This document shows positions 16,808-17,260 of a stretch of 64,000 nt of DNA, piece after piece; position 1 is the first letter of the stretch; the number at the start of each line of letters is the position of its first letter. The translations under genes were made by a program, and so were the position numbers. Source of the DNA: Escherichia coli (lineage in GTDB: Bacteria; Pseudomonadota; Gammaproteobacteria; Enterobacterales; Enterobacteriaceae); the NCBI RefSeq assembly GCF_003790525.1, contig NZ_CP033633.1, one strand, 5' to 3'. Below the pieces are notes generated by a model. It was not told the origin of the DNA. It ran no database searches and saw only the letters and a list, made by a program, of their open reading frames with translations.

Positions 16808-17260
16808 ATGAAATTTATGGAATGTGCTGTCCGGGATGTGATTTATGGGACCAATGTCCGTCTTGTCAAACCGGTCAACATTTATGAATGTGAACTCGGG
16901 GACAATGTGTTTGTCGGCCCCTTCGTTGAGATACAGAAAGGCTGTGTCATTGGTAGTGGAAGTCGGATACAGTCGCACACGTTTATTTGTGAGAACGTAA
17001 CACTGGGGGAGAAGTGCTTCATTGGTCATAACGTGACGTTCGCCAACGATCTGTTTCGTTCAGGAGCACCAGATCCGTCACCGGATAACTGGATCAGCAT
17101 TACCCTGGGGGATTCGGTTACTGTTGGCAGTGGAGCCATTATTCTGTCTCCGTATATATGCAGCGGAGCTGTTATTGGTGCGGGTTCAGTTGTGGTAAAA
17201 CCGATTGAGAACAAAGGCATTTATGCAGGAAACCCGGCAAGACTGCTCAGAATATTATGA
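16808..17260 (+). CDS. Hexapeptide-repeat (left-handed beta-helix) acyltransferase
   Basis: Repeated [LIV]-G-x-x-x-x hexapeptides; start placed at internal ATG 16808. Confidence 0.65.
   Translation: MKFMECAVRDVIYGTNVRLVKPVNIYECELGDNVFVGPFVEIQKGCVIGSGSRIQSHTFICENVTLGEKCFIGHNVTFANDLFRSGAPDPSPDNWISITLGDSVTVGSGAIILSPYICSGAVIGAGSVVVKPIENKGIYAGNPARLLRIL

Follow-up and report, generated by a model that had tools for sequence, protein, structure and literature searches.

A Probable 3-Amino-Sugar N-Acetyltransferase Gene in an Escherichia coli Plasmid as the Survivor of a Six-Gene Amino-Sugar Module

Results

The Acetyltransferase Gene and the Remnants of Its Operon

The DNA considered here is a stretch of 64,000 nucleotides of an Escherichia coli colicin plasmid (assembly GCF_003790525.1, contig NZ_CP033633.1), referred to below as the window. 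It contains a short gene for a hexapeptide-repeat acetyltransferase, which was originally predicted to be an isolated acyltransferase gene without partner biosynthetic genes, located between an IS629-like insertion sequence (IS) and an IS3 remnant (Table 1). The location is correct, and the window indeed holds no intact partner, but fragments of two partner genes flank the acetyltransferase gene on its downstream side. Its isolation is secondary: the gene once belonged to an amino-sugar module of six genes, and the other five have been deleted.

The open reading frame (ORF) is intact and comprises 150 codons between the ATG at 16808 and the stop codon at 17258–17260 of the plus strand. The ORF list also holds a form extended to a GTG at 16778. 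We prefer the start at 16808 because the first methionine is conserved in homologues: the ATG aligns with Met-1 of 40 of them, is preceded by AAGGA and is the start chosen by the Prokaryotic Genome Annotation Pipeline (PGAP), where the product is named simply 'acyltransferase' (WP_032353631.1). A chance ORF can be dismissed since the gene is present in 336 plasmids of PLSDB and in 393 of the 5,426 complete E. coli genomes and is annotated by PGAP.

The intact module was found in plasmid p17437. There the acetyltransferase gene faces a convergent operon of five genes (7082–11950 of locus L001) that encode a DegT aminotransferase, a phosphatase of the haloacid dehalogenase (HAD) type IIB, a Gfo/Idh/MocA dehydrogenase, a SemiSWEET transporter and a flavin adenine dinucleotide (FAD)-dependent enzyme similar to flavin-containing monooxygenases (FMO). 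Positions 16459–17528 of the window correspond to 6249–7318 of the p17437 locus with 96.8% identity, and positions 17721–18235 to 11879–12394 with 91.9% identity (blastn). Between these two blocks 4,560 bp of the operon are missing relative to p17437, and the end of an IS element stands in their place. On the acetyltransferase side of the break the DNA homology to the monooxygenase gene (7082–7318 in p17437) stops at 17528; in tblastn the window matches monooxygenase residues 425–510, and PGAP calls this leftover a 'hypothetical protein' (WP_032353630.1). On the far side tblastn gives 100% identity across residues 1–24 of the DegT aminotransferase. No operon gene was found elsewhere in the 64-kb window. 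The simplest history comprises two steps: the aminotransferase gene would have been interrupted at codon 24 by an IS3-family element, and a deletion extending from inside this element to codon 433 of the monooxygenase gene would then have removed the operon. The remainder would be an intact, self-contained unit of promoter, acetyltransferase gene and terminator.

The terminator and promoter that had been ascribed to the gene fared differently. The terminator is a hairpin that starts 6 nt past the stop codon and is identical in p17437; its stem has 9 pairs, 5 of them G–C, with a 6-nt loop and T/A runs flanking both sides. The terminator scan reported it on the minus strand only. The sequence read directly, GGGCC-GTTACT-GGCCC followed by TTTTTAT, fits a plus-strand terminator as well, and the hairpin probably serves both convergent genes. 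The promoter is plausible at most: a perfect TATAAT at 16764–16769 has no good −35 box, AAGGA follows at 16794–16798, and the promoter scan yielded a single plus-strand site at 16505–16534, the number of sites being no higher than in shuffled sequence. An Rfam scan of 15000–18700 revealed no riboswitch or leader upstream of the gene, the sole match being an IS3 frameshift pseudoknot; sub-threshold matches to a counter-transcribed RNA at the terminator and to a plastid intron were dismissed as noise.

Protein Family and Fold

The product scores 60 bits with the Pfam family Hexapep (PF00132) against a gathering cut-off of 27 (E = 1.3e-16, 3 stretches). No NCBIfam model reaches its cut-off with the 150-residue protein. 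The best NCBIfam match is NeuD/PglB/VioB (NeuD_NnaD) with 62.2 bits against 160.8, its best stretch covering residues 98–145. Models of xenobiotic acetyltransferases score 31.8 bits against 300 (Vat_ABCDEFH), 28.4 against 350 (CatB) and 26.5–31.1 against 415–450 (Vat(A), Vat(C) and Vat(I)), and those of O-acetyltransferases 42.8 against 243 (WbbJ), 41 against 192 (WcaF), 34.7 against 347 (LacA) and 31.8 against 314 (Maa).

The final AlphaFold 2 model, a monomer computed from a diverse alignment of 82 sequences, has a predicted local distance difference test (pLDDT) score of 96.2 and predicts a left-handed beta-helix starting near residue 8. A Foldseek search with this model returned solved beta-helix acyltransferases and gamma-carbonic-anhydrase-like proteins. 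The best template modelling (TM) score, 0.86 at 1.7 A root-mean-square deviation, belongs to chain 3mqg_F of WlbB (the other 3mqg chains align worse), and FdtD gives TM scores of 0.80–0.82. Together with the Hexapep score, these matches bear out the original view of the protein as a short left-handed-beta-helix acyltransferase. A first model, built from 40 close homologues, reached a pLDDT of only 64.6 and was discarded as poor; its Foldseek matches to right-handed helices and pentapeptide-repeat proteins (E above 0.02) are artefacts.

When a profile of the 40 homologues was compared with solved structures, the best matches were QdtC (2e-14), LpxD (4.5e-14, over 50 residues only), FdtD (1e-13), 7s43 (3e-12) and WlbB (5e-12). 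With the exception of LpxD these proteins, including the 165-residue N-acetyltransferase 7s43/7s3u, act on 3-amino sugars according to their depositors. In the HMMER alignments the motif HNVTFAND of our protein lies opposite VVLTND of QdtC and NVTFTND of FdtD and 7s43, and counting along the printed alignment places E141, N159 and D160 of QdtC opposite E62, N80 and D81. Among the 40 homologues N80 and D81 are invariant and E62 is nearly so. In QdtC, E141 and N159/D160 reportedly have roles at the sugar-amine site. Every residue that is invariant in the family, H57, H74, N80 and D81 included, is kept in the window copy, which also has a C-terminal GNPAR motif; motifs of this type are typical of hexapeptide-repeat acyltransferases.

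The gene neighbourhood of relatives points in the same direction. In Helicobacter pullorum a homologue with 59% identity has two Gfo/Idh/MocA genes and one for a DegT aminotransferase as its neighbours, a cluster that in our reading may follow the same logic of oxidation, amination and acetylation at C3. Since sequence neighbours and gene neighbours agree independently of each other, N-acetylation of a 3-amino sugar is the activity that we would expect of this enzyme.

The Parental Operon

The same six-gene arrangement as in p17437 occurs in the Pantoea ananatis chromosome (operon at 8484–13348 of locus L007), with protein identities of 62–77%. Of the solved structures, 7kz3 (4e-91), which we take to be KabA, and Bacillus subtilis NtdA (3e-88) are closest to the aminotransferase, with WbpE (3e-50) as the family that comes next. 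NtdA is the aminotransferase of the pathway to kanosamine (3-amino-3-deoxy-D-glucose). This pathway reportedly, in work of Vetter et al. from 2013, also uses a dehydrogenase of the Gfo/Idh/MocA type and a HAD phosphatase. The operon dehydrogenase matches levoglucosan dehydrogenase and its relatives, an assignment that, like that of the HAD-IIB phosphatase, holds at the family level only. Among solved structures the monooxygenase is most similar to 8odw (1e-63), a 'polyketide synthase modules-related protein', with flavin-containing monooxygenases coming next; this likeness suggests an amine or Baeyer–Villiger-type oxygenation of the amino sugar. The parental module has no nucleotidyltransferase gene, and neither has it genes for a glycosyltransferase, flippase or polymerase.

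The three enzyme types of NtdABC/KabABC of Bacillus, with an aminotransferase closest to NtdA, are thus all represented in the enterobacterial module. It differs in adding the FMO-like monooxygenase, the SemiSWEET transporter and the convergent acetyltransferase, and in being known here from its genes alone; of its operon the window retains just 24 + 78 codons. Our literature searches yielded no experimental work on the module and a mention at the level of annotation only: a region of an enteroaggregative E. coli plasmid is annotated as ntdABC (PMC5320562). This plasmid appears to be the record LT719075, itself a match in our searches.

Distribution and Selection

The complete operon is present in 59–60 PLSDB plasmids, and fragments of it in about 450 more. 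The count of 59–60 and that of the acetyltransferase gene were conditioned on searching with the acetyltransferase gene and reflect clonal plasmid lineages. The excess of 336 over 60 plasmids was therefore rejected as a decisive proof of selective retention, all the more so as one large lineage has lost the gene. In the complete E. coli genomes the gene occupies 91 chromosomal places.

Orphan copies of the gene were examined in five further E. coli settings: the ColV plasmid pECOS88; a related plasmid, with IS1203 in the dehydrogenase gene; an IncFIA plasmid, where the microcin B17 operon lies on one side and parM on the other; an IncFIA/FIB plasmid, where the copy lies between colicin Ia and sopA; and a chromosomal tRNA-Phe island. 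The retained segments end at differing points, and none is shorter than the complete ORF plus 164 bp of upstream DNA. All 17 gene copies that were compared are intact. The pairwise ratio of non-synonymous to synonymous substitution rates (dN/dS) is 0.08–0.24 among the orphan E. coli alleles and 0.04–0.17 against stand-alone copies of other genera. The orphan copies are under purifying selection. The exact arrangement of the window is much narrower in its distribution, being found in about 10 complete, nearly clonal E. coli genomes (99.9% identity), mostly from poultry.

A species scan with one genome per species returned 80 loci, more than 70 of which hold a homologue without the operon. Close stand-alone homologues occupy conserved chromosomal positions in many Enterobacterales, Vibrio and Aeromonas. 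In about 20 of the loci the homologue has a conserved position next to a GNAT gene. Homologues with about 60% identity lie directly downstream of this gene in Klebsiella, Raoultella, Citrobacter, Kosakonia and Enterobacter (L031–L058 and similar loci, for example 7631–8667 of L048), and in our reading of the ORFs the neighbours resemble malEFG, psiE, yjbFGH, pgi and lysC. This GNAT-linked group has the look of a housekeeping-like branch of the family that belongs to the core genome. The original prediction had named a housekeeping subfamily as the outcome that would speak against a resistance role, and these stand-alone chromosomal homologues go part of the way towards it.

In a different genus, the situation of the window has an independent counterpart in Edwardsiella ictaluri ATCC 33202. 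At 1375–2166 of locus L013 an intact gene with 85% identity precedes all that remains of the operon in the 10.8 kb of contig examined, a 3' fragment of the monooxygenase gene with 105 codons and 67% identity.

Flanking IS Elements and Neighbouring Cargo

The complete element on the left ends in terminal inverted repeats of 25 nt (TGAACCGCCCCGGG...) and lies 349 bp upstream of the acetyltransferase gene. PGAP labels it as an IS3 family transposase with programmed frameshift, and Rfam finds an ALIL frameshift pseudoknot at 15485–15601 (116 bits). From the size and the repeats we presume it to be IS629; a similar element carries the label 'IS1203' in OY856304.1. Plasmid AR_0085 shows it as a simple insertion into the 5' end of ydfA, a divergent gene, with 3 bp of target (AAC) duplicated. 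The insertion point is about 56 bp inside this widespread backbone gene (window 16460–16515, minus strand; 6507–6767 of locus L002), the position of which was taken from loci L089 and L090. The window DNA to the left of the element, with vapBC and a truncated nikB, differs from that of AR_0085. The left flank has thus been exchanged at the element, which indicates a later IS-mediated rearrangement by recombination or inversion between IS copies. A second, diverged copy with 91–94% identity is present at 45570–46343 and 48605–49128 of the window, split in two by about 2.26 kb of inserted DNA.

The native upstream stretch, from 16459 onward, shares in the 96.8% identity to p17437. Backbone homology common to thousands of plasmids stops at about 16674–16709, so only some 100–130 bp upstream of the gene belong to the module. 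A 23-nt inverted repeat (16515–16537 and 16588–16610, 78% complementary, 50 nt apart) is also present in the AT-rich, divergent stretch that separates ydfA from the acetyltransferase gene; it could be an operator or a chance product of the AT-rich composition. The left-end remnant of the second IS3-family element is labelled 'transposase, incomplete' by PGAP, and the same IS end is present in 3,060 of the 5,426 E. coli genomes.

Collinearity with the window is seen in plasmids like pE15-3 (chicken E. coli), which carry colicin M, immunity to colicin B and a truncated colicin B gene along with ccdAB. Downstream of the module remnants (window 18626–19973 onward; compare 23539–29364 of locus L094) lie ccdAB, a site-specific integrase gene and colicin M with its immunity gene; there are also colicin B immunity, the truncated colicin B gene and a truncated gene for a tRNase-type colicin, all in a bacteriocin-rich, IS-eroded region. 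Plasmid NZ_CP116161.1 (9003–12319) matches the flanks of the module at both ends, while the cargo enclosed by them is different and encodes a DUF4238 protein and a nucleotide-binding protein. Cargo thus seems to vary at this site, which lies between ydfA and the downstream backbone.

Table 1. Positions in the window of the acetyltransferase gene, the operon remnants and the adjoining elements.
Feature	Position	Strand	Basis
Acetyltransferase gene, hexapeptide-repeat left-handed beta-helix, intact, 150 aa	16808..17260	+	Pfam Hexapep, AlphaFold 2, homologues
Hairpin terminator between convergent genes, probably bidirectional	17266..17289	.	Sequence and terminator scan
FMO-like FAD-dependent monooxygenase gene, 3' remnant: last 78 codons and stop	17292..17528	-	DNA homology and tblastn
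Second IS3-family element, left-end remnant, 192 bp: terminal repeat TGAGGTAGCC... and first 42 orfA codons	17529..17720	-	Sequence reading
NtdA-like DegT aminotransferase gene, first 24 codons (17721-17792), and operon upstream region (17793-18235)	17721..18235	-	tblastn, blastn
Native upstream region: truncated ydfA 5' end (~16460-16515, minus), AT-rich spacer, TATAAT, AAGGA	16460..16807	+	p17437 alignment
Complete IS3-family element (IS629/IS1203-like), 1310 bp; orfA 15204-15530, orfB 15527-16417	15150..16459	+	Repeats, pseudoknot, PGAP

Discussion

The data suggest that the gene encodes an acetyl-coenzyme A (acetyl-CoA)-dependent 3-amino-sugar N-acetyltransferase that acts alone and possibly protects the cell against a kanosamine-like compound, a reading to which we assign a probability of about 0.6. 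The enzyme would be small and would probably form the trimer usual for beta-helix acyltransferases, which use acyl-CoA and have their active sites where subunits meet. Its acceptor would be a 3-amino-3-deoxy-hexose, the 3-amino group of which would receive the acetyl group of acetyl-CoA; candidates are kanosamine, kanosamine 6-phosphate and a flavin-oxygenated derivative produced by the monooxygenase. In the native setting the gene would be transcribed from its own promoter, convergently to the five-gene operon and with a common terminator. A free or phosphorylated sugar is favoured as the substrate because the parental module has an aminotransferase of the NtdA type, a phosphatase and a SemiSWEET transporter and no nucleotidyltransferase. 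As to the role, we favour detoxification or self-protection over an obligatory tailoring step of biosynthesis, because the gene is separate from and convergent to the operon, persists under purifying selection without it and is commonly found as a stand-alone gene. Cells take up kanosamine and convert it to the phosphate, an inhibitor of glucosamine-6-phosphate synthase (PMC9272926); blocking of the amine would plausibly abolish this inhibition.

The comparison with characterised enzymes defines the place of the protein within the superfamily. Its best sequence and fold neighbours are QdtC, WlbB and FdtD together with 7s3u/7s43 of H. pullorum; like these it consists of a beta-helix core without a separate N-terminal lobe, and a TF(T/A)ND motif is common to QdtC, FdtD, 7s43 and the present protein. 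Genes of the QdtC group are neighbours of one for a sugar C3-dehydrogenase or ketoisomerase and one for a DegT aminotransferase. Relatives of our gene are paired with a C3-dehydrogenase and a DegT aminotransferase (in p17437, Pantoea and H. pullorum), while of this pairing only fragments are left in the window and nothing is seen in the more than 70 stand-alone loci. On the other hand, the identity is about 25% and the length 150 residues against 165–312. The enzyme thus resembles the QdtC/WlbB/FdtD group and yet would not be a strict member of it, the gene context arguing against a nucleotide-sugar substrate. Class I N-acetyltransferases (PglD, PerB, VioB) possess a globular N-terminal domain of about 90 residues in addition to a catalytic histidine (PMC9271549). 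With PglD, PerB, VioB and NeuD our protein shares the C-terminal turns of the beta-helix, and NeuD/PglB/VioB is the best NCBIfam match, but it lacks the N-terminal domain, and the score stays far under the cut-off.

Several observations weigh against the reading proposed here. The enzymes of the QdtC group use sugars linked to thymidine diphosphate (dTDP) or uridine diphosphate (UDP) that are made for glycans, and the real substrate of our enzyme may be different from theirs; the subfamily placement itself follows from nearest neighbours at about 25% identity, and gamma-carbonic-anhydrase-like proteins of the YrdA type are close in fold (TM score 0.77). The role of the monooxygenase leaves room for a hydroxylamine or another derivative, which could be the true acceptor. 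The gene's own promoter is a plausible candidate and not a demonstrated one. Between the window allele and its nearest relatives there are 3 non-synonymous and 2 synonymous differences, an insufficient number for demonstrating constraint in this lineage. About one third of the plasmids with operon remnants (the 570–2578 class) have no acetyltransferase gene and keep fragments of the monooxygenase, SemiSWEET and dehydrogenase genes instead, and the number of plasmid records reflects clonal spread and not independent events.

The last points bear on the possibility that the gene is a functionless relic in this plasmid, an intact ORF that has yet to decay and is carried along in IS-rich accessory DNA. 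The loss of the parent operon, the surrounding patchwork of IS fragments and pseudogenes, the near-clonal spread of the arrangement in some ten genomes, the small number of changes in the window allele and the plasmid lineage that lost the gene with no obvious consequence would all be expected of such a relic. We nevertheless hold this explanation to be rather unlikely, as the 349 bp of native upstream DNA and the terminator have been retained along with every family-invariant residue, orphan alleles in other E. coli contexts show dN/dS values of 0.08–0.24, and stand-alone homologues are conserved across genera. A different activity within the acyltransferase superfamily, namely O-acetylation of a surface polysaccharide or a free sugar in the manner of WbbJ, WcaF, NeuO, Maa or LacA, with O-antigen, capsule or non-metabolisable sugars as targets, would agree with the surface-modification role that had been suggested originally. 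Weak profile matches to WbbJ, WcaF, LacA and Maa exist, NeuO, OatWY and Maa are among the Foldseek matches, and some homologues with 55–60% identity are located within glycan gene clusters. This activity is improbable in our opinion: all of those profiles remain far under their cut-offs, the parental module lacks the genes for glycan assembly, the partner aminotransferase is of the NtdA (sugar phosphate) type and not of the O-antigen type, and the nearest neighbours in sequence and fold, which own the conserved Asn-Asp motif, are N-acetyltransferases.

The same neighbours speak against the two most distant alternatives. YrdA is the top Foldseek match by E-value (TM score 0.75–0.77), and several gamma-carbonic anhydrases appeared in the profile search with E of 1e-6 to 1e-8, so that one might consider a beta-helix protein of the gamma-carbonic-anhydrase-like, YrdA or PaaY type with no acyltransferase activity at all. 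The sequence matches to N-acetyltransferases are stronger by at least five orders of magnitude (2e-14 for QdtC), the best TM score goes to WlbB, and no model of this kind is among the 25 NCBIfam families listed; we regard the idea as very improbable. Hardly credible is the streptogramin or chloramphenicol resistance that was proposed initially, with the protein acting on streptogramin A or chloramphenicol as a xenobiotic acetyltransferase of the Vat/CatB type. The protein does belong to the same fold superfamily as Vat, CatB and ApmA, its gene is plasmid-borne with IS elements on both flanks, and weak matches of these models are found at the C-terminus (residues 98–148, E about 1e-7). The matches, however, cover generic C-terminal turns only and are roughly tenfold under the curated cut-offs, the protein has 150 residues against the approximately 210 positions of the Vat and CatB models, its closest relatives are others, amino-sugar N-acetyltransferases match better, and the gene bears no AMRFinder resistance flag in the PLSDB gene tables. 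What stands of the resistance idea departs in kind from the initial proposal: the nearest characterised relatives (QdtC, FdtD and WlbB among solved structures) are 3-amino-sugar N-acetyltransferases, and protection against an amino-sugar antibiotic is possible. Vat, CatB and ApmA set a precedent for the inactivation of antibiotics by beta-helix acetyltransferases, in the case of ApmA of an aminoglycoside (PMC7885111).

The preferred reading of a 3-amino-sugar N-acetyltransferase may be extended to a more specific and, in our estimate, doubtful scenario. The operon carried by mobile elements of E. coli, Salmonella and Pantoea would make and export an antimetabolite derived from kanosamine, possibly N-oxygenated by the monooxygenase, and the acetyltransferase would neutralise it; plasmids and chromosomes from which the operon has been lost, or in which it was never present, would keep the gene as an orphan self-protection gene against producers. 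As a side possibility, the enzyme could cross-acetylate kanamycin or tobramycin at the 3''-amine of their kanosamine ring. If the self-protection reading is true, the operon-less plasmids and chromosomes would hold a small-molecule counterpart of the orphan colicin immunity genes, and would do so amid colicin loci. By analogy only, the gene can be likened to the oppositely oriented immunity genes of pore-forming colicins, since it is small, has a putative promoter of its own and lies beside an operon that would produce a toxin. A colicin immunity gene can persist after its toxin gene has decayed, and plasmids of the present type carry colicin B immunity beside a truncated colicin B gene. Colicin immunity proteins, in contrast, are not enzymes, and the toxic product of the amino-sugar operon is hypothetical.

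For the annotation of such plasmids, our results mean that the 'acyltransferase' contains no recognised resistance determinant and that no flag as a streptogramin or chloramphenicol resistance gene is warranted. The enzyme is an uncharacterised representative of a known enzyme type that is generically annotated in public records. Where its gene lies, an amino-sugar module has decayed that is still intact on about 60 sequenced plasmids and on the P. ananatis chromosome; the five-gene operon of this module appears to be uncharacterised. If the module does combine a kanosamine-type antimetabolite with a detoxifying enzyme, an unnoticed system of small-molecule competition would be present on common ColV, ColBM and IncF plasmids from E. 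coli of avian and extra-intestinal origin, and the acetyltransferase would be the widely retained antidote half of a plasmid-borne amino-sugar antagonism.

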